This document shows, piece by piece, positions 17 to 10,673 of a stretch of DNA of 64,000 nt (positions within the stretch are counted from its first letter, which is position 1; every line of letters begins with the position of its first letter). Source of the DNA: a virus; the IMG/VR virus record IMGVR_UViG_3300037237_000386, positions 12,919 through 76,918 of that record. One strand, written 5' to 3'. The position numbers were made by a program, and so were the translations under genes. The notes beneath the pieces are model-generated. The model searched no databases. It was not told the origin of the DNA and saw nothing but the letters and a program-made list of their open reading frames with translations.

Positions 17-259
17 GTGATGAACAACGAGTCCGGCGCGGACGAGCTCCGCAAGATCGTGAACGTCCTGAACAACACGCGGGAGAGCGCCCTCGACGGG
101 CACACCGCGGAGCGACTCATCCAGCTGGTGCGGGCGTGCCGGGCGAGCCCCTGGGACCTGACGCCCGACATGCTGACGCTGAACGAGGCGACCTACGCGA
201 GCAGGACGGGGAAGCTGTCGGCCGCGTGCGTAGCGCGGCTGACGAAGGAGTTGGGGTGA
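17..259 (+). CDS. hypothetical protein
   Basis: ORF with typical phage codon usage; its stop overlaps the next start (GTGATG). Confidence 0.6.
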   Translation: MMNNESGADELRKIVNVLNNTRESALDGHTAERLIQLVRACRASPWDLTPDMLTLNEATYASRTGKLSAACVARLTKELG

Positions 260-660
260 TGGTGAAGCCCAGGCGCGCGGAGAACCTGCAGGAATCGACC
301 GAGCGGCTCAACCGGCTGCTCGCGAAGGCGGAGGAGATATTCAGCGCCGCGAACGCAGAGGACGGGGCGACGGCGCAGGTGGAGCTCGCCCCTTTCCTCA
401 GCTCGGGCAAGGGCGGGGCGCGGCTCCACTGGAAGCGACACGACAGCACGTGGGGCTTGTGGGTGGAACGACAGGGGACCGATGTGCTGGTGCGCCTCGC
501 CAAGGTAGCGCGCCACGTGCGCGTCCTCGCGGCGAGCAAGCTGGAGGCCCTCTTCGACGCGCTCGCGGACGAGCAGCTCGCCCAGGGCGATGACGTCGCC
601 AGGGCGGTGCAGGACGCGGAGGCGTTCGTCGAGGAACACGAGGGACCCACGAGCGCCTGA
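259..660 (+). CDS. hypothetical protein
   Basis: 3' part of ORF 136..660; ATG at 259 is coupled to the upstream stop. Confidence 0.6.
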   Translation: MVKPRRAENLQESTERLNRLLAKAEEIFSAANAEDGATAQVELAPFLSSGKGGARLHWKRHDSTWGLWVERQGTDVLVRLAKVARHVRVLAASKLEALFDALADEQLAQGDDVARAVQDAEAFVEEHEGPTSA

Positions 661-661
661 G

Positions 662-677
662 GGAAACCCGGGTTTCC
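662..677. repeat. 16-bp palindrome GGAAACCCGGGTTTCC, copy 1
   Basis: Read directly; 1 nt after the TGA at 658-660. Confidence 0.97.
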
Positions 678-698
678 CCCGGGGCGAGTAGAAAGCGG

Positions 699-727
699 TT
701 TACAAGTATCGCGGTAGGGAGCAGATT
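699..727 (+). promoter_or_regulatory. sigma70-like promoter TTTACA-N17-CAGATT
   Basis: Shares ACAAGTATCGCGGT with the promoter at 23040; lies upstream of the sigma factor gene. Confidence 0.55.
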
Positions 728-768
728 GCAGGACCCGGGCGCAACCGGGATCACGGAGGCCGAAGGCC

Positions 769-1425
769 ATGGGACACCCGGTGTTGGAGCGTGGATTGTT
801 GGCGGTGCGTGACGGACGCGAGACGTTCGACAGCTTCGCGAGAAGGACGATGCCGCATTGGGAGCGGCTGGCGCAGTACATCCTCCGGCGCTGGAGGCAG
901 CCGGCTTGGGTGAGCGACGCGGACGTGGTGCAGGACCTGCTCGTGGCCGCCTACGACGCCGTCTGGACGTACGATCCGAGCAAGGGTCCGACCATCGAGG
1001 GGTACGCCGTGTACTCGGCCGTCGATCACGCGAAGAAGCGGGCGCACAAGGCGCGCGGTGCCAAGCTCCACCGGACCGCGGACCGGAACCCGAGCCGGAT
1101 GGAGCTGGGGACGGTCACTCTTTGGGGCGAGGACGCTCCCAGGCGCGTCGAGGAGGCGCTGCAGCAGGAACCCACGCAGGAGGACGCCCTGACGCAGCGG
1201 GAGGCCCTCCAGAGGGCGCTGGCGGTGTGCAGGAGCGAGGGGGAGCGGTGCGTCATCCGGACGCTCGCCCAGGCGGCGGACCTCGTCGAGGGAGCCATGA
1301 TGCTGTACGCGGACCCGGAGGCGAGGCTAGCGTGCCGGCTGCTCAACGAGACGCACGCGGCACGCGTGACGACGGAGGTTGTGCTGGAGGTGGCTGAGCG
1401 GCTGCAAGATGGGGCCGCGGCTTGA
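769..1425 (+). CDS. phage RNA polymerase sigma factor (sigma70 region 2-like)
   Basis: DADVVQDLLVAAYDAVWTYDPSKGPTIEGYA resembles the region 2 pattern D(L)xQ...A...(F/Y)DP.(K/R)G..F..YA. Confidence 0.75.
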   Translation: MGHPVLERGLLAVRDGRETFDSFARRTMPHWERLAQYILRRWRQPAWVSDADVVQDLLVAAYDAVWTYDPSKGPTIEGYAVYSAVDHAKKRAHKARGAKLHRTADRNPSRMELGTVTLWGEDAPRRVEEALQQEPTQEDALTQREALQRALAVCRSEGERCVIRTLAQAADLVEGAMMLYADPEARLACRLLNETHAARVTTEVVLEVAERLQDGAAA

Positions 1426-1495
1426 GGGCAGGACGCCCGGGAGCCGAGGTGGCGACCGGGTGAGGACGAGGACGAAAGACGGAGGCGCGAATCAC

Positions 1496-2665
1496 ATGGG
1501 AACAGCGGCGGCGAAGAAGCAGGAAAAGGGAACGGTCATCAACGGGGTGCTCCTCGACAAGGCGAAGGAGGCCATCATCCTCAAGTCGCTGAAGGCGCAG
1601 AAGCTGGAGGGCAAGAAGGGCGAGCCGCTGGATACGCTCGTCATGCGCCTGGCGATGCACTTCAAGGAGAAGGGCAATGGCACGGACGACGATCCGAAGG
1701 AGCTGATGGAGTGCGATGCGGAGGCGGGTGGTTGTGGAGGCGGGAGCTTCCGCGAGCTGGCGGCGTGCCCCTTCTGCGGGATGGTGAACGACGACGCGGG
1801 TAGCGGCAGCGGCAGCGACAGCAAGGACGACCGTCCGAGCACGCCCAGCGCGCTCGCGGGCACGAACCCGAAGGCGCAGGAGCCCGAGGCGGCGCGGAAG
1901 ACGAGCGCCATCGCGAGTGCGAAGAAGCTCGACGAGGCGGTGGCCGAGGTGCAGCGCCTGAAGGGCGCGTACGCCGGGAGCAATTGGGACCTCGGCAAGA
2001 AGGTGCTCGAGATTTTCACGGAGGGCACGTGGAAGCTGCGCCTCGACGACAACGGCAAGGCGCGGTGGAAGGGGTTCGACAGCTTCTGCCACGCGGAGCT
2101 CGGTCTCTTGCCGAATCAGGCGTTCGACGTGATGGACCTCGCCAAGAACTTCACGCGTGAGCAGATGCTGACGCTCGGCAAGGCGAAGCTGAAGCTCATC
2201 GCGCAGGCGCCCGAGGAGGACAAGCAGAAGCTCCTGGAGCAGGCAGCCAAGGGCGGCAAGGACGGCAAGGGCGCTACGAAGCGCGAGATCGAAGCCGAGG
2301 TGCGGCGCATCAAGAAGGAGAAGGGACACCGTCGCGCGAGCCGCGGCGGCCAGGCGAAGGGCAGCACTACGGCGGGCGCGGGTGGTGGCAGGAAGCCCAA
2401 GCCGGCGGAGGACAAGGTCACGGTCAGCCAGATGGTGGGCAAGGTCACCGTCAAGCTGTTCCAGAAGCCGGCGAACGTGAAGAAGTTCGACCCGAAGGAG
2501 CTGAAGCGGGCCAAGACGGTCGGCAAGGTGCCGTGGGGTCGGAACGTGCTGCTGAACGGCGTCGTGCAGTCGTTCACGGTGCGGGAGAACGGGGCCGGGG
2601 AGCTGGAGCTCGTCGTCGAGACGGCGCGCGAGGAGGCACCCGAGCCGACGAAGGCGGCGAAGTAG
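1496..2665 (+). CDS. Lys-rich putative DNA-binding protein (Zn ribbon plus DUF3102-like helical domain)
   Basis: Cys pairs CDAEAGGC...CPFC; segment WDLGKKVLEI...WKGFDSFCHAELGL..NQAFDVMDLA; GGAGG RBS before ATG 1496. Confidence 0.5.
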   Translation: MGTAAAKKQEKGTVINGVLLDKAKEAIILKSLKAQKLEGKKGEPLDTLVMRLAMHFKEKGNGTDDDPKELMECDAEAGGCGGGSFRELAACPFCGMVNDDAGSGSGSDSKDDRPSTPSALAGTNPKAQEPEAARKTSAIASAKKLDEAVAEVQRLKGAYAGSNWDLGKKVLEIFTEGTWKLRLDDNGKARWKGFDSFCHAELGLLPNQAFDVMDLAKNFTREQMLTLGKAKLKLIAQAPEEDKQKLLEQAAKGGKDGKGATKREIEAEVRRIKKEKGHRRASRGGQAKGSTTAGAGGGRKPKPAEDKVTVSQMVGKVTVKLFQKPANVKKFDPKELKRAKTVGKVPWGRNVLLNGVVQSFTVRENGAGELELVVETAREEAPEPTKAAK

Positions 2666-2837
2666 TCGTGGGAGCGAGGCTCAAGGTCGTCAAGGGGAGG
2701 GAGACGAAGCAAGAGCGCGAGGACAGGGAGGCAGACGAAGCGGTGGAGGAGGTTGTTCGCGTCTGCCTCCGGATGAGTGGGCGAGGACGGCTGGAGTACC
2801 TCGCGTCGCTCATTGATTCCGTCGCAAGGCGGGCGCG

Positions 2838-3122
2838 ATGAGCGACGACATGCCGTGCACGGCGTGCGACGGACACGGGCGCGTGCCCCTGAGCCAGGAG
2901 TTGCAGGACAGCCTCGACAAGGTGCGCGAGGGCGGTGTGGAGACGGCGGAGGACCTCTGGAAGACGATGGCGAAGGGGTTGTGGAAGACGGCGGCCGTCA
3001 ATCGTCTGGAGAGGCTCCGCACGCTCGGGTACTTGGAGCGGACGAAGCGAGGCCGCACGTGGCATTACTCCGCGAGGACCGCGGCGCAGGTGGTCGAGGT
3101 GAAGAAGCGACAGCGGCGCTGA
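2838..3122 (+). CDS. Zn-finger/winged-helix protein
   Basis: CTACDGHG motif plus NRLERLRTLGYLERTKRGRTWHY, a wHTH recognition helix and wing. Confidence 0.55.
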   Translation: MSDDMPCTACDGHGRVPLSQELQDSLDKVREGGVETAEDLWKTMAKGLWKTAAVNRLERLRTLGYLERTKRGRTWHYSARTAAQVVEVKKRQRR

Positions 3123-3145
3123 CGCGCGCCAAGACGGGCGTCATC

Positions 3146-6100
3146 ATGGGAGACGTGTACGGCGCCGGGTACGTGAACGGGTACGTGGATGGGAGCAGGG
3201 TGACCCTGCTCTCGCGCGGGGCAGGCGGCAGGCTGCAGCGCAGCCAGGTGCCCGCGGAGCACGTCGCCTACTTCCGCAAGGACGAGCTGCCGCCGGAGCT
3301 GGAGAAGCTCCTCCTGCGGAACTGCGCCGGCGCGAAGCTCGAGGACGGCGGGTGGATGCGGTTCGCGCTGCCCGAGCACGTGCGCCGCAACGTGTGCATC
3401 GAGGACGTGTGGAAGAACGCCAGCGGCGAGAAGCGGGACAACCCGTTCGCGGCGGTGCCTAGCTACGAGGGAGACGTCGACCCGGTGCGGCGGTTCCTGA
3501 CGGACAGCAAGGCGACCGTCGCTCGGCCGAGGCGCGCGTACACGGACATCGAGACCGACTCCAGGGTCCCCTTCAACCGGAAGCACGAGATGCGCGTGCT
3601 CAGTTGGGGGCTGCAGGCGCACGACACGGGCGAGATGCGCGTGGGCGTCCTCCAAGCCGACACGGACGGTGCGGAGGCGGAGCTGCTCGGGCAGTGGTGG
3701 GAGGCGATGGAGGAGTTCGACCAGGTGGCCGCCTGGAACGGGGGCGAGGCGGACCCCGACGGCGACGGGTTCGACTTCCCGGTCATCATGGCCCGCTCGG
3801 AGCACGTGAAGCTCCGTGGCGTGGACCCGAGGAGGTTCCTCTACGTCGACCAGCTGGAGGCGTTCCGGCGGATGAATCAGCACGCGTCGGAGAGCGGCGA
3901 GGAGAAGCAGAGCATGAAGCTCGACTCCATCGCGCACATCCTCCTCGGCGCGGGCAAGGACGACTTCGACGCGAGCCACACGTGGGAGGCTTGGGCGGCG
4001 GGAGGACCCGAGCGCAGGCGCCTCGTGAAGTACATGATGCGGGACGTCGACTTGCTGCGGCAGATCGAGCTGAAGACGCAGTTCCTCGATCTCTTCTCGA
4101 CGCTCTGCGGCGTCTTCCACATGTTCGCGGACACGCGAGGGCTGAACCCGACGCAGCAGGTGGACGCGTACATGCTCGGGTTCCTCCGCGAGCGCGGACT
4201 GCACCGCCCGACGAAGAAGCGCATCGAGAAGGGCGAGAAGTTCAAGGGCGGGTACGTGATGAACCCGCCGCGCTTCGTCGGCGTGGAGAAGGACATTCAC
4301 GTGGCGGACTTCGCGGGGATGTACCCGAGCATCATCCGCTCGTGGAACATGAGCCACGAGACGAAGGCGGCGAACGCACCGGTGAACGGGCCCGTGCCTG
4401 AGGGGTTCTGCCGGTGCCCCAAGACGGGCACGAGCTTCACGACGGCGGAGGAGGGGCTGCTCAGCATCGCGGTCGGCAACCTCATCGAGAACCGGAAGAA
4501 GTACCGGAAGCTGAAGGCGAGCCTGGCGCCGGGGTCGCCGGAGTTCGCGGACGCGGACCGCCTGAGCGACTCGTACAAGGTGGCCACGAACATCTTCTTC
4601 GGGGTCGTGGGCAGCCCGTTCAGTCCCTACTTCGACAAGCAGATTGCGGAAGGCATCACGCAGAACGGCGTGTGGCTCATCGAGCACACCATCGCCGCGG
4701 CGGAGAAGCGCGGGTGGTTCGTCGGCTACGGCGACAGCGTCACGGGGGATCGAACTGTCGTCTTACGCTCGCCTGCAGGAAGGACCGTCATCAAGCCGGT
4801 GGAGGAGGTGTTCGAGGACGGGTGTGACGTGGTGCGCGCACGCGACAAGGAGTTCGTCTTCATGCAGGGGTGGGAGGCACTCGCCCGAGACGCGAAGGGT
4901 CGCGAGGGCTGGTATCCGCTGACGCAGGTTGTCCGTCATCGCACGTGCAAGGAGCTCGTGCGCATCTCGACGAAGCGCGGCGAAACGGAGGTGACGAGTG
5001 ACCATTCGATCATGTCCGGCGGACGCGAGGTGAAGCCCGACGAGTTCCTGGCGGCAGGAGCGCGGTTCGAGAAGGTCGACGCCCAGGAAGGCAGGAAGCT
5101 AGAGCGTGTTGACCTGTTCGAGTACCTGACTGACTTCAAGGTTTCGTACGCGTCCCGAGGACGTGTGAGGGTGAAGGAGTTCTTCGTTACGGCGGACGGC
5201 GAGTGGGTCGGGTTGAGAATGCGAGGTTCGACGAAGCAGTACATCCGGCGGTTTTATGACGCGGGATCGGAGCGGTTCAGGGCGCTGCTGCGCGTGATGG
5301 GGGCGTATCTGGCCGAGGGGAGCGCGAGTATCCGCAAGCTGACGGCGACTCGTGACATGTTCTCTATCGGGCAGTCCGACCCGGACTGGCTCGCCCCGTT
5401 GCAGAAGGACTTGGCTTCGTTCACGCAGGGGGTTGAGACGGACCTGATGCCGACTGGGGGAGGGATGTGGGCAATTCGTTCGGGAGCCGCGCTGCTGCCG
5501 TACGCGTTCGCTGCACTCTGCGGATTCAGGTCGAGTGGCAAGCGGTTTCCGGACTTCGTGTACGACCTGGCGGATGACGACTTTGCGGAGATGAAACGTC
5601 CCATGGTGGAGGGGGATGGACACGTCGTGGAGCCGGACGTGTGGAGGAGCAGGGCGCTGCGGCGAAGCCCCGGGCACGAGTTCTCGTACACAACGAAGTC
5701 GCAGGTGCTGATGGCGGGGTTCTCGTATGCGCTGGACCAGCGTGGGTTCGAGCACGCGATCCACTACAGACCGGAGAAGCGGTGTTGGACGTTGAGGACA
5801 AGGCCGACGGGGACAGAGCGACCGAACAGGCAGCGGGTGCTCGTCTCGCGGCGGAAGGCTGAGGACGAGTGGGTGTACGACTTGACGGTGGAGGGGGCAC
5901 ACACGTTTGTCGATGGCATCGGTAGGGTGCTTCTGCACAACACCGACAGCATCTACGTGAAGGGACCGACGAAGGCGGAGTTCGAGGCGTTCACGAAGTG
6001 GTGCAACGAGGAGCTCTACCCGCCGCTGATGAAGCAGGTGGGGTGTCCGCGCAACGTCGTGAACTTGGAGTACGAGAAGGAGTTCGAGCGCATCGTCTTC

Positions 6101-7027
6101 GTCACGGCGAAGCGCTATGCCGGCTGGTACAAGCACTTCAAGGGCAACGCGCCGAAGGCGGACGCGAAGCCCGAGGTGAAGGGCCTGGAGTACAAGCGGG
6201 GCGACAGCACGAAGCTCGCGCGCGACCTGCAGGTGCGCGTCGTGGAGATGCTGATGAAGGGCGAGGAGGGGATGGAGGCGTTCCATGAGCTGCTCTCGCA
6301 CGCGCGACAGCACGTGCTCGAGGACGCGCTGCCCCTGGCCGAGGTGGTGATGCGCAAGGAGCTCAGCAAGGCGCTGCGCGAGTACGCGGTGAAGAAGAAG
6401 AAGGACGGCGAGGACGCGGCGCAGTCGCCGCACGTGGTCGTGGCCAAGATGCTGAAGGCCCGCGGCCAGGACGTCAGTGCCGGCACACGCGTCGGCTACG
6501 TGGTGCTCGACGACGAGGCGGAGGACCCGGCGAAGCGGTTCATGCCGGAGGAGGACTACAAGGGCGAGTGCGACCGGCACTACGTGTGGCAGTCGCTCGT
6601 CTACCCGCCGACGATGCGCCTCCTCGAAGCAGCGTTCCCCGATGCGGACGCGGTGAAGCATTGGGAGGCTTGGGCCAAGAGCCGCCCGAGCAAGAAGGCC
6701 CTGAAGGCGCTGGAGCAGGGGCAGGGAGCTCTCTTCAAGTCGGAGGAAACCCGGGTTTCCCCCACGGGTCTGCGGACGACAGCGCCTCCCACGCTGGCGA
6801 GCACTCAGCCTTACGAGGCGGTCGTCGACCAGGACAAGTTGGAGGCGGCCGGGGGCCTGGAGGTGCTGCTCGCGGTCGCGCAGCGGCATCCGGGCAAGCG
6901 GATGCTCAAGCTGCGGCTGCGTCTCGACACGGGGGCGGAGGCGGCGATGGACACGGCGGTGCGCGTGGATGGTGGCGGGGCGCTGGCGCGGAAGCTCGCC
7001 CTCTTCCGGCACGTTGCTGCGTCGTGA
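3146..7027 (+). CDS. family B DNA polymerase containing an intein
   Basis: Exonuclease motifs DIETD, WNG...FDFP, YMMRDV; polymerase motifs DFAGMYPSII, KVATNIFFG, YGD/TDS, KRYAG, VKGLE. Start placed at ATG 3146 because the upstream in-frame region overlaps other genes. Confidence 0.95.
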   Translation: MGDVYGAGYVNGYVDGSRVTLLSRGAGGRLQRSQVPAEHVAYFRKDELPPELEKLLLRNCAGAKLEDGGWMRFALPEHVRRNVCIEDVWKNASGEKRDNPFAAVPSYEGDVDPVRRFLTDSKATVARPRRAYTDIETDSRVPFNRKHEMRVLSWGLQAHDTGEMRVGVLQADTDGAEAELLGQWWEAMEEFDQVAAWNGGEADPDGDGFDFPVIMARSEHVKLRGVDPRRFLYVDQLEAFRRMNQHASESGEEKQSMKLDSIAHILLGAGKDDFDASHTWEAWAAGGPERRRLVKYMMRDVDLLRQIELKTQFLDLFSTLCGVFHMFADTRGLNPTQQVDAYMLGFLRERGLHRPTKKRIEKGEKFKGGYVMNPPRFVGVEKDIHVADFAGMYPSIIRSWNMSHETKAANAPVNGPVPEGFCRCPKTGTSFTTAEEGLLSIAVGNLIENRKKYRKLKASLAPGSPEFADADRLSDSYKVATNIFFGVVGSPFSPYFDKQIAEGITQNGVWLIEHTIAAAEKRGWFVGYGDSVTGDRTVVLRSPAGRTVIKPVEEVFEDGCDVVRARDKEFVFMQGWEALARDAKGREGWYPLTQVVRHRTCKELVRISTKRGETEVTSDHSIMSGGREVKPDEFLAAGARFEKVDAQEGRKLERVDLFEYLTDFKVSYASRGRVRVKEFFVTADGEWVGLRMRGSTKQYIRRFYDAGSERFRALLRVMGAYLAEGSASIRKLTATRDMFSIGQSDPDWLAPLQKDLASFTQGVETDLMPTGGGMWAIRSGAALLPYAFAALCGFRSSGKRFPDFVYDLADDDFAEMKRPMVEGDGHVVEPDVWRSRALRRSPGHEFSYTTKSQVLMAGFSYALDQRGFEHAIHYRPEKRCWTLRTRPTGTERPNRQRVLVSRRKAEDEWVYDLTVEGAHTFVDGIGRVLLHNTDSIYVKGPTKAEFEAFTKWCNEELYPPLMKQVGCPRNVVNLEYEKEFERIVFVTAKRYAGWYKHFKGNAPKADAKPEVKGLEYKRGDSTKLARDLQVRVVEMLMKGEEGMEAFHELLSHARQHVLEDALPLAEVVMRKELSKALREYAVKKKKDGEDAAQSPHVVVAKMLKARGQDVSAGTRVGYVVLDDEAEDPAKRFMPEEDYKGECDRHYVWQSLVYPPTMRLLEAAFPDADAVKHWEAWAKSRPSKKALKALEQGQGALFKSEETRVSPTGLRTTAPPTLASTQPYEAVVDQDKLEAAGGLEVLLAVAQRHPGKRMLKLRLRLDTGAEAAMDTAVRVDGGGALARKLALFRHVAAS
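4736..5941 (+). mobile_element. intein with LAGLIDADG homing endonuclease, inserted in the YGD|TDS motif (402 aa)
   Basis: Starts SVTGD after YGD and ends VYDLTVEGAHTF...LLHN before TDS; block B TSDHS; LAGLIDADG-like GAYLAEGS and MVEGDG; codon usage differs from the extein. Confidence 0.93.
6745..6760. repeat. 16-bp palindrome copy 2 (in the polymerase C-terminal linker, ETRVS)
   Basis: Read directly. Confidence 0.97.
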
Positions 7028-9458: not shown

Positions 9459-10673
9459 ATGGCCAGGCACAAGATGAGGACGGCGGACGCGAGCTCACCC
9501 CTGAGGGAGAGCCCGCTCGCGGCGGTGGCGGCGCGCTTCAAGGACTTCCGTCCGGCGCGCGAGGTGATGAAGGTGGTGCGCGCGGTGCCGACGCGCTTCA
9601 TCCAGTTCGACCACGCGACGCGGGTGGGTGGACTGCCCGTCGACCGCATCTCGGTCGCGCACGGTCCGAGCAACGAGGGCAAGACGCTGCTCGCGCTCGG
9701 GCTCATCGACAGCTTCCTCGCGCTCGACCACTTCGGGCTGTTCGTGGACGCGGAGCGGACGACGCCGATCACGTGGGCGCGGGAGCTGATGGGCGAGCGG
9801 GCGGACTACCCGGGGTTCTTCGCCACCCGCCCCGACACGTACGAGGAGACGATCAAGCAGGTGCGGGCGTTCCTGAACCTGCTCATCGACATGAAGGCGA
9901 AGGGCAAGGTGCCCAAGGAGACGAGCGCGGTCGTCGTCGTGGACAGCCTGCGTAAGCTCGTGCCGGCGGACCTGATGGCGGAGATCCTGAAGGCGGCGAA
10001 GGAGGAGGCCGAGGAGCGGAAGAAGGGCAAGAAGGGCAAAGGCATCACGACGGGCCGGGACCGGCGCGCGCAGCTGCAGGCGAAGATGAACGCGGGGTGG
10101 ATGGACGAGCTCGTGCCGCACCTGGAGCACGCGGGAGCGGCGATGCTGCTCATCGCGCGCGAGATGCAGGACCCGGACGCGGACCCGATGGCTCGGAAGT
10201 TCGGCACGGACTACAAGGTCGGCGGCGGCGGAGCCATCATCTACGACAGCAGCCTGCGCCTGCGTGTTGAGCGCGCCGCGTGGGTCGTCGACAAGAAGGA
10301 AGAGGGCCGCAAGCCGGTCATCTTCGGGGAGCGGCACCGCGTCACCATCAAGAAGACGAAAGTGGGCGGAAAGGACGACAAGGCGAGCGTGGCCTACTTC
10401 CACTCGAGCAACGGCGTGCTGGTGCCGGCGGGGTTCGACCGCGCCAGGGACGTGCTGGAGCTCGCGGTGCGCTTCGGCGTGGTGCAGGCGGGCGGGGGGA
10501 GCTACCGCGTGGGGAGCACGCGCAGCGGCGTCCTCGGGCGCGGGGAGCACAACGTCGTGAAGCGGCTGACGGCGGAGCCGGCGACGCTGGCGAAGTTGGA
10601 GGCGGAGGTGCGCGAGCGGTTCAAGGACCAGACGCCGACGGAGTTCGACGAGATCACCGGAGAAGTCGAATGA
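9459..10673 (+). CDS. recA: RecA/UvsX-family recombinase
   Basis: GGLP..RI...HGPSNEGKT Walker A, FVDAE, VVVDSL Walker B, GGGAIIYDSSLRL. Confidence 0.92.
   Translation: MARHKMRTADASSPLRESPLAAVAARFKDFRPAREVMKVVRAVPTRFIQFDHATRVGGLPVDRISVAHGPSNEGKTLLALGLIDSFLALDHFGLFVDAERTTPITWARELMGERADYPGFFATRPDTYEETIKQVRAFLNLLIDMKAKGKVPKETSAVVVVDSLRKLVPADLMAEILKAAKEEAEERKKGKKGKGITTGRDRRAQLQAKMNAGWMDELVPHLEHAGAAMLLIAREMQDPDADPMARKFGTDYKVGGGGAIIYDSSLRLRVERAAWVVDKKEEGRKPVIFGERHRVTIKKTKVGGKDDKASVAYFHSSNGVLVPAGFDRARDVLELAVRFGVVQAGGGSYRVGSTRSGVLGRGEHNVVKRLTAEPATLAKLEAEVRERFKDQTPTEFDEITGEVE

Follow-up and report, generated by a model that had tools for sequence, protein, structure and literature searches.

The stretch of viral DNA analysed here, referred to as the window, comprises 64,000 nucleotides (bases 12919-76918) of the linear, 76.9-kb IMG/VR virus contig IMGVR_UViG_3300037237_000386. 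The contig is estimated to be 83% complete, the G+C content of the window is about 68%, and the + strand carries nearly all of the genes. One of these encodes a family-B DNA polymerase (PolB), whose C-terminus is our main concern (Table 1). Beyond the thumb (...YPPTMRLLEAAFP...) the protein continues with EQGQGALF (residues 1313-1320, window 6713-6736; residue n begins at position 2777+3(n-1)), which contains a pentapeptide of the type that binds the bacterial β clamp, and it ends in a domain that is very probably homologous to the τ-binding C-terminal domain (CTD) of DNA polymerase III α (Pol III α, or DnaE). Read in frame, the end of PolB consists of the thumb (...RPSKKALKALEQGQGALF), a 23-residue linker and the last 73 residues, which contain LEVLLAVAQRHPGKRMLKLRL...VRVDGGGALARKL. 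The translation of this region, from EQGQGALF after the thumb through a linker that bears a palindrome to the tail, is identical to that given in a preliminary description of the locus.

We place the likely start of the gene at an ATG that lies 24 nt past the stop codon of the preceding small gene, a position that fits the N-termini of the homologues. The protein matches the Pfam family PF00136 with 118.2 bits (cut-off 23), the exonuclease family PF10108 and the PHROG family phrog_262 ('DNA polymerase', 2e-47), and both exonuclease and polymerase motifs are legible in its translation (DIETD, FDFP, Y..RD, DFAGMYPS and KVATNIFFG). Judged by these sequence features, PolB is a proofreading, primer-dependent family-B replicase. 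A Pfam scan of the window PolB found none of the PHP, Pol3 core, finger, HhH and OB domains of DnaE; the same kind of scan on a genuine DnaE (P0234) displays PHP, Pol3, finger, HhH and OB. By its domain content, then, the window PolB is not a DnaE, and only its last 73 residues appear to be DnaE-derived. The term B/C chimera, used in the preliminary description, is consequently apt for the docking module but not for the rest of the protein, in which the PHP, Pol3 core and OB domains of DnaE are missing. A tblastn search with the C-terminal 375 residues of PolB against 50,697 phage records gave no match, so that this polymerase lineage has no cultured relative among those records.

Table 1. Features of the polymerase gene, in window coordinates
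Feature	Position	Strand	Basis or remark
Family-B DNA polymerase gene	3146..7027	+	likely ATG at 3146; open frame from 2777; stop 7025-7027
N-extein: 3'-5' exonuclease, motifs A and B, first half of motif C (..YGD)	3146..4735	+	PF00136 positions 14-202 and PF10108 on this piece alone
402-aa intein splitting motif C (YGD|S...HN|TDS)	4736..5941	+	direct reading of the translation
C-extein: remainder of motif C (TDS), palm, thumb	5942..6721	+	PF00136 positions 262-418 on this piece alone
QGALF, pentapeptide of the β-clamp-binding type	6722..6736	+	fits Qxx[LM]F; residues 1316-1320; column conserved in the family
Flexible linker, Pro/Thr/Ala-rich	6737..6805	+	predicted disordered; length and sequence vary among homologues
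16-bp perfect palindrome GGAAACCCGGGTTTCC	6745..6760		inside the PolB linker; translated E-T-R-V-S
73-aa C-terminal domain, very probable homologue of the τ-binding CTD of Pol III α (DnaE)	6806..7024	+	profile and predicted structure

The C-terminal domain, the clamp motif and their distribution

Searches with the tail as a single sequence were uninformative: Pfam returned no family, phmmer against the PDB returned only noise (E >= 0.24), and a search for related loci yielded a single one. The CTD has been called 'poorly conserved', and Timinskas et al. built their own hidden Markov model (HMM) for it (PMC3919608); Pfam is silent on the tail because it holds no model of the α CTD. We therefore relied on two alignments of tails, termed A2 (10 sequences) and A3 (22 sequences), for which the sole source was PolB genes at viral and metagenome loci. 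With the A2 profile, the top three distinct sequences in the PDB were all Pol III α, with E-values of 3.5e-5 for 7PU7 and 1.4e-3 for the Thermus aquaticus (Taq) enzyme. With the A3 profile, Mycobacterium tuberculosis DnaE1 (7PU7) was matched over residues 1110-1177 of 1184 at 3.8e-7 and Taq α (2HPI/4IQJ, 3E0D) over residues 1131-1173 of 1220 at 7e-5, while all entries other than α had E >= 0.015. The improvement from A2 to A3 indicates that the signal in the tail rises with the depth of the profile.

Against 1.84 billion representative proteins (cluster representatives), the A3 profile gave 712 matches at E <= 1e-3. Two full-length DnaEs are matched near their C-terminal ends: P0234 (1162 aa; with PHP, Pol3, finger, HhH and OB) at residues 1077-1136, right after the OB domain, and P0226 (1611 aa) at residues 1535-1606. 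Among the top 150 matches 144 were new, which BLAST sorted into 40 C-termini or C-terminal fragments of DnaE, 28 PolBs and 76 sequences too short to class. The 40 DnaE pieces, in which the OB region lies upstream of the match, include the two full DnaEs, and two of the fragments carry the Joint Genome Institute (JGI) name 'DNA polymerase-3 subunit alpha'. In the reverse direction, an HMM of the 40 DnaE pieces, run against 15,130 open reading frames (ORFs) drawn from every locus retrieved and from the whole phage, matches only PolB C-termini; on the window PolB this DnaE-only model covers residues 1342-1410 with an E-value of 5.2e-7. Aligned with each other by hhalign, A3 and the DnaE CTD alignment agree over 73 columns with a probability of 99.4% and an E-value of 5e-22.

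Two proteins with PKD repeats, P0143 and P0188, also occur among the A3 matches; they were rejected as false positives because of their many partial stretches and their Pfam assignments. A search of the ESM Atlas for look-alikes of the tail returned only Ig-like clusters, with scores <= 0.83, which belong to the same class of false positives.

Structure prediction points in the same direction as the profiles. An AlphaFold2 model of the tail, made on A2, has a predicted local distance difference test score (pLDDT) of 88 and a β-α-α-β-β-α topology. In a Foldseek search of the PDB with this model, the top five matches are Taq Pol III α chains, including that of the α-τ-c complex 4IQJ, with probabilities of 0.94-0.99, a TMq of 0.6, identities of 29-32% and E-values of 0.03-0.16. 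VIA-align superimposes the model on Taq α 1129-1195 with Z-scores of 7.1, 6.8 and 6.5 (root mean square deviation 2.1-2.6 Å over 63-65 residues) and on Escherichia coli α 1082-1151 with Z-scores of 4.4 and 4.2, the first unrelated fold having a Z-score of 3.2. The α CTD binds τ (PMC3919608), and in E. coli α residues 1079-1160 form the τ-binding domain (PMC4703070). Profile and fold searches thus agree in pointing to one small domain at a single position in DnaE, and we regard it as almost certain that the PolB tail is a homologue of the DnaE CTD.

The linker that separates the clamp-type motif from this domain is 3-73 residues long in the tail-bearing homologues (median 19), rich in Pro, Ala and Ser, and unconserved. 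We modelled the closest intein-free homologue, P0002, which is 78% identical in the core, at full length with AlphaFold2. The polymerase body is confidently predicted to about residue 787, that is, some 10 residues before the motif; residues 788-846, which comprise the GQGALF motif and the linker, have a pLDDT <50; and a folded CTD with the same topology as in the tail model occupies residues 851-917.

With the C-terminal 357 residues of PolB as query, a word-indexed search retrieved more than 120 PolB homologues of 778-1300 aa, many of which terminate at a Qxx[LM]F peptide or a few residues beyond it. Past the conserved ...LLEAAFP anchor, Qxx[LM]F is present in 33 of 94 homologues, whereas shuffles of the individual tails predict 0.5. 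When 121 sequences were aligned with MAFFT, the columns that correspond to Q-G-A-L-F of the window PolB held Q in 80/86, L, M or F in 75/77 and F or L in 57/73, the denominators being the sequences with a residue at that column. A motif of the clamp type is thus conserved across the PolB family. Both likenesses put forward in the preliminary description have therefore held up, that of the tail to the DnaE CTD in profile searches in both directions, in hhalign and in the Foldseek and VIA rankings, where α CTDs come top, and that of QGALF to a clamp motif in the conservation of its column among orthologues. Bacterial PolBs of groups G1 (Pol II) and G3 have a β-clamp-binding motif (PMC12926913), which in E. 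coli Pol II is QLGLF (PMC5731819), so that a family-B enzyme with a clamp hook is of a known kind. We consider it probable that the phage PolB likewise uses the host β clamp, through QGALF.

The distribution of the tail is clade-restricted: its pattern is found in 28/121 homologues, and also in about 24 distinct loci. In a tree of the PolB core, made without the tail columns and without inteins, all 28 tail-bearers fall in one half (55 rows, support 99), and the other half has tails in 0/66. Within the tail-bearing half, presence and absence require about 10-11 changes on the tree; a tail is borne by both the window PolB and P0002, but P0003-P0008, the proteins closest to them, end about 20 residues past the motif. 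A few sequences of this half scored as tail-less (P0088, P0083 and P0025) look like diverged tails that fall under the HMM threshold.

We also built a tree of the domain only, from 56 PolB tails and 40 DnaE CTDs over 75 columns. This tree is poorly resolved, and its DnaE sequences were picked by the PolB-tail profile, a caveat that applies to what follows: the labels PolB and DnaE need 4 changes on it, against 30.7 in shuffles, and a tree in which all PolB tails form a single clade is not rejected by the approximately unbiased test (p-AU 0.77). On the simplest history, a DnaE CTD was captured once, long ago, by the ancestor of the PolB clade and was then lost repeatedly. The pattern does not resemble repeated recent acquisition from present-day hosts or a recent capture from the phage's own host. 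Within ±5 kb of PolB at about 130 loci, we found neither a stand-alone CTD ORF nor a CTD on any other protein.

In a subset of the tails (L056:2839-3096, L057:2558-2815, L059:6548-6808 and L134:6434-6688) an extra 15-30 residues follow the CTD. This Trp-rich extension has the pattern W..A..S..WE..C, is probably helical, and is absent from DnaE CTDs and from the window tail. It may be a further interaction element.

Proposed docking on the host clamp and clamp loader

Upstream of PolB the phage encodes a DEAD/ResIII helicase, a DnaB-like helicase, a DnaG-like primase and a UvrD-like helicase, and downstream of it a RecA-like protein. We found no DnaN, DnaX/RFC-type clamp loader, PCNA, gp45-type clamp or τ domain V in the phage, as far as the 83%-complete contig represents it; the control genomes gave the expected matches, but the models for gp45 (PF02916) and τ domain V (PF12170) detect few controls. 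DnaN and DnaX were also absent from ten related phages, five tail-bearing and five tail-less, eight of which are at least 95% complete. As clamp and loader genes are lacking in the phage and in its ten relatives, the whole group would depend on the host for both, and the CTD would be an extra tether in one clade.

From this absence, together with the homology of the C-terminus, we infer that PolB docks on the clamp and on the τ subunit of its host. In the mechanism that we propose, the Qxx[LM]F peptide, held on a disordered tether, would fit into the hydrophobic pocket of host β in the manner of Pol II, Pol III α and other clamp clients, whose consensus is written Qxx[LM]F or QL[SD]LF, and the DnaE-derived domain, about 20 residues past the motif, would contact τ of the host DnaX clamp loader. 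The host clamp loader would load host β on phage primers, and the contact between τ and the CTD would keep the phage PolB at the fork in place of Pol III α; as a side effect, PolB would compete with host α for τ. Binding of Qxx[LM]F peptides to the β pocket is established, and τ, which the α CTD holds, makes a further contact with the replicative helicase and gives the replisome its organisation (PMC3919608, PMC4703070). Binding of β and τ would presumably benefit the replication of the phage.

The components of this proposal do not all carry the same weight. That a two-part C-terminal docking module ties the phage PolB to the host clamp and clamp loader seems to us rather likely. For τ as the partner of the CTD, the balance tips only slightly in favour. 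A more far-reaching version, in which PolB replaces α in the host holoenzyme, giving a hybrid replisome of phage helicase, primase and PolB with host clamp and loader, while host α is competed off τ and replication capacity is switched from the chromosome to the phage, is put forward tentatively, and we think it more doubtful than probable.

Several observations weigh against the proposed docking. The τ-c domains of E. coli and Taq are not homologous and lie on opposite sides of the α tail (PMC4703070); because the C-terminal domains of τ are lineage-specific, homology of the CTD alone does not fix its partner. In Bacillus subtilis it is the SSB C-terminal tail, not τ, that retains DnaE3 at the fork, although DnaE3 has a CTD (PMC3919608). 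Within its own PolB clade the tail has disappeared on at least about 10 occasions, and the sister half never has it; phages whose PolB has no tail also lack a clamp loader, so that the CTD is accessory and not a requirement. The OB domain, which in E. coli DnaE moves rigidly with the CTD and τ, is missing from PolB. Finally, a clamp gene could lie in the part of the genome that the contig lacks. Co-folding was carried out with a stand-in pair, the tail of the related PolB at L134, a locus whose 103-kb contig shares a bin with a 'Methylocystis' metagenome-assembled genome (MAG), and the C-terminal 170 residues of the DnaX of that MAG (L174); the score of 0.30, against a mark of 0.32, was counted neither for nor against the contact.

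Some of the same observations can be turned into a different reading of the tail, namely that it is a true DnaE-CTD homologue re-tuned to a partner other than τ, such as the phage DnaB-like helicase, the DnaG-like primase, an SSB tail or a second polymerase (dimerisation), in a phage-only replisome in which Qxx[LM]F alone makes use of a host protein. The partners of the CTD are lineage-specific, as the unrelated τ-c of E. coli and Taq (PMC4703070) and the reliance of DnaE3 on the SSB tail (PMC3919608) illustrate. The phage has a helicase and a primase of its own, some tails carry a Trp-rich C-terminal helix that is lacking in DnaE, and the separation of PolB tails from DnaE CTDs in the domain-only tree implies an independent history long enough for a change of partner. 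We nevertheless judge a re-tuned partner unlikely, given that τ binding is the sole documented function of the domain and that phages without a clamp loader must use that of the host anyway. Nor does a second protein with a complementary τ-like or CTD-like module occur within ±5 kb of PolB at the roughly 130 loci, or a τ domain V in the phage, the model for the latter being weak. Alternatively, the tail could serve mainly as a decoy that fills the α site of τ, evicts host α and stops replication of the host chromosome, any help to phage synthesis being secondary. A decoy rests on the same homology evidence, and binding of τ at the same site would necessarily mean competition with α; present evidence also fits docking for phage synthesis equally. 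Fusion to a replicase, behind a clamp motif, would however be needless in a decoy, and in the loci surveyed the domain is never a separate gene or part of another protein of these phages. We find this explanation improbable.

Both of these alternatives accept the homology. It could instead be supposed that the tail, a small β-α-β-β-α unit with an 'HPG' turn, resembles the DnaE CTD through convergence or chance, and that QGALF is a chance pentapeptide. The empty single-sequence searches of Pfam and the PDB would agree with this, as would the modest Foldseek E-values, Z-scores of about 7, which are common for small domains, and the fact that the profile also matches PKD/Ig repeat proteins. However, the profiles in both directions are specific and remain significant when judged against a whole library, the hhalign probability is high, and within DnaE the match invariably falls at the very C-terminal end, just past the OB domain. 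Sequence and fold searches moreover point to the same domain, and the motif column is conserved, with Q in 80/86. Chance or convergence has in our view been tested and refuted, and we assign it hardly any probability.

Bacterial and archaeo-eukaryotic replisomes are built around unrelated polymerases, of family C and family B respectively, and the contacts with accessory proteins are commonly regarded as system-specific. In the window phage, a family-B replicase has taken over the very module, clamp hook plus homologue of the τ-binding domain, that links a family-C replicase to the bacterial clamp loader. If PolB docks on the host clamp and τ as proposed, the phage would need to supply no more than polymerase, helicase and primase, the remaining machine being borrowed. 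It would provide a natural test of the modularity of the τ-α interface, and its tail, a small, independently folding τ-binding domain that exists in many diverged versions, could be used for studying or inhibiting that interface. Should the hybrid replisome also prove true, it would be a natural B-family enzyme run by bacterial C-family accessory machinery. Because the domain has no Pfam model, PolB tails currently go unannotated, which the present finding corrects.

The arrangement is like that of Pol III α (DnaE1/DnaE3) in that a clamp pentapeptide comes first and a CTD forms the very end of the replicative polymerase; in E. coli α the clamp motif is 920-QADMF-924, the OB domain spans 960-1071 and the CTD 1079-1160. 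It differs from α in its family-B catalytic body and in having a disordered linker of 3-73 residues where α has the OB domain. E. coli Pol II (G1) and the uncharacterised bacterial G3 PolBs are likewise proofreading family-B enzymes with a C-terminal peptide of the Qxx[LM]F type for the β clamp, but they end at or soon after the motif, and no DnaE-type CTD has been described for them. The gp43 proteins of T4 and RB69 are also phage family-B replicases, with a short C-terminal clamp peptide on a flexible tail. T4-like phages, however, encode a PCNA-like clamp, gp45, and a loader, gp44/62, neither of which was found in the window phage, and the window PolB adds to the gp43 plan a domain that appears to be taken from a bacterial replicase.

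In the published surveys that we consulted this combination is not mentioned. A survey of PolB diversity contains zero occurrences of DnaE, tau or PolIII (PMC7544198), a PolB with a DnaE CTD is mentioned neither in surveys of viral replicases (PMC4889955, PMC3201878) nor in a survey of bacterial polymerases of 2026 (PMC12926913), and a survey of Pol III α makes no mention of phage (PMC3919608). Our full-text literature searches for PolB with a DnaE τ-binding domain returned nothing, within an incomplete coverage of the literature, which is no proof of novelty. A clamp hook on PolB is thus known, and a DnaE τ-binding domain on a family-B polymerase is undescribed in the surveys named.

Inteins, palindrome and neighbouring genes

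The intein of PolB extends from S654 to H1054-N1055, ahead of T1056, and interrupts the YGDTDS of motif C, which in intein-free homologues reads as an unbroken DTDS (consensus). Its G+C content, 0.64, is lower than that of its surroundings, and it contains a LAGLIDADG-like segment (..AYLAEGSA..). The Pfam family Intein_splicing (PF14890) matches it at 4.7e-5 with 23.7 bits, under the cut-off of 35.8, and a PDB sequence search with the intein gave no match. Motif C would be whole only once the intein has been spliced out. The UvrD-like helicase just upstream (L132:9732-12938, corresponding to window -3186..20, + strand) also has an intein, with a Hom_end_hint match at 1e-17 and a LAGLIDADG_3 match, so that inteins occur in two or more of the phage's replication genes. 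Among the DnaEs matched by the tail profile, P0226 carries a LAGLIDADG/Hom_end intein within its PHP region.

The palindrome in the PolB linker, GGAAACCCGGGTTTCC, occurs in 15 copies in the window (662 ... 62371), where 0 are expected. It is found at the matching place of the PolB linker in related phages (L003/L020/L091 and L052), and the peptide ETRVS is retained in the homologues P0003, P0007 and P0013. In a related phage of 100.6 kb the palindrome was counted 18 times and in another phage 9 times; two other tail-bearing relatives have none. Within PolB the palindrome uses the codons GAA and GTT, despite a G+C content at third codon positions (GC3) of 0.87 in this gene. It looks like a conserved site at the DNA level that is tolerated in the disordered linker.

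As to the host, the closest cultured relatives of the phage by portal protein, phages of Komagataeibacter and Ralstonia, are 25-28% identical, and a genome scan found relatives of PolB only in MAG bins of mixed phyla. Two genes upstream of PolB, window 769-1425 (+) encodes a small protein with a weak match to σ70 region 2 (6.8e-5, just under the cut-off). The RecA-like protein downstream (window 9459-10673, +) has 404 aa; its match to the RecA core ends at residue 171 and that to RecA_C begins at residue 331, and the roughly 160 residues in between may be an insertion.

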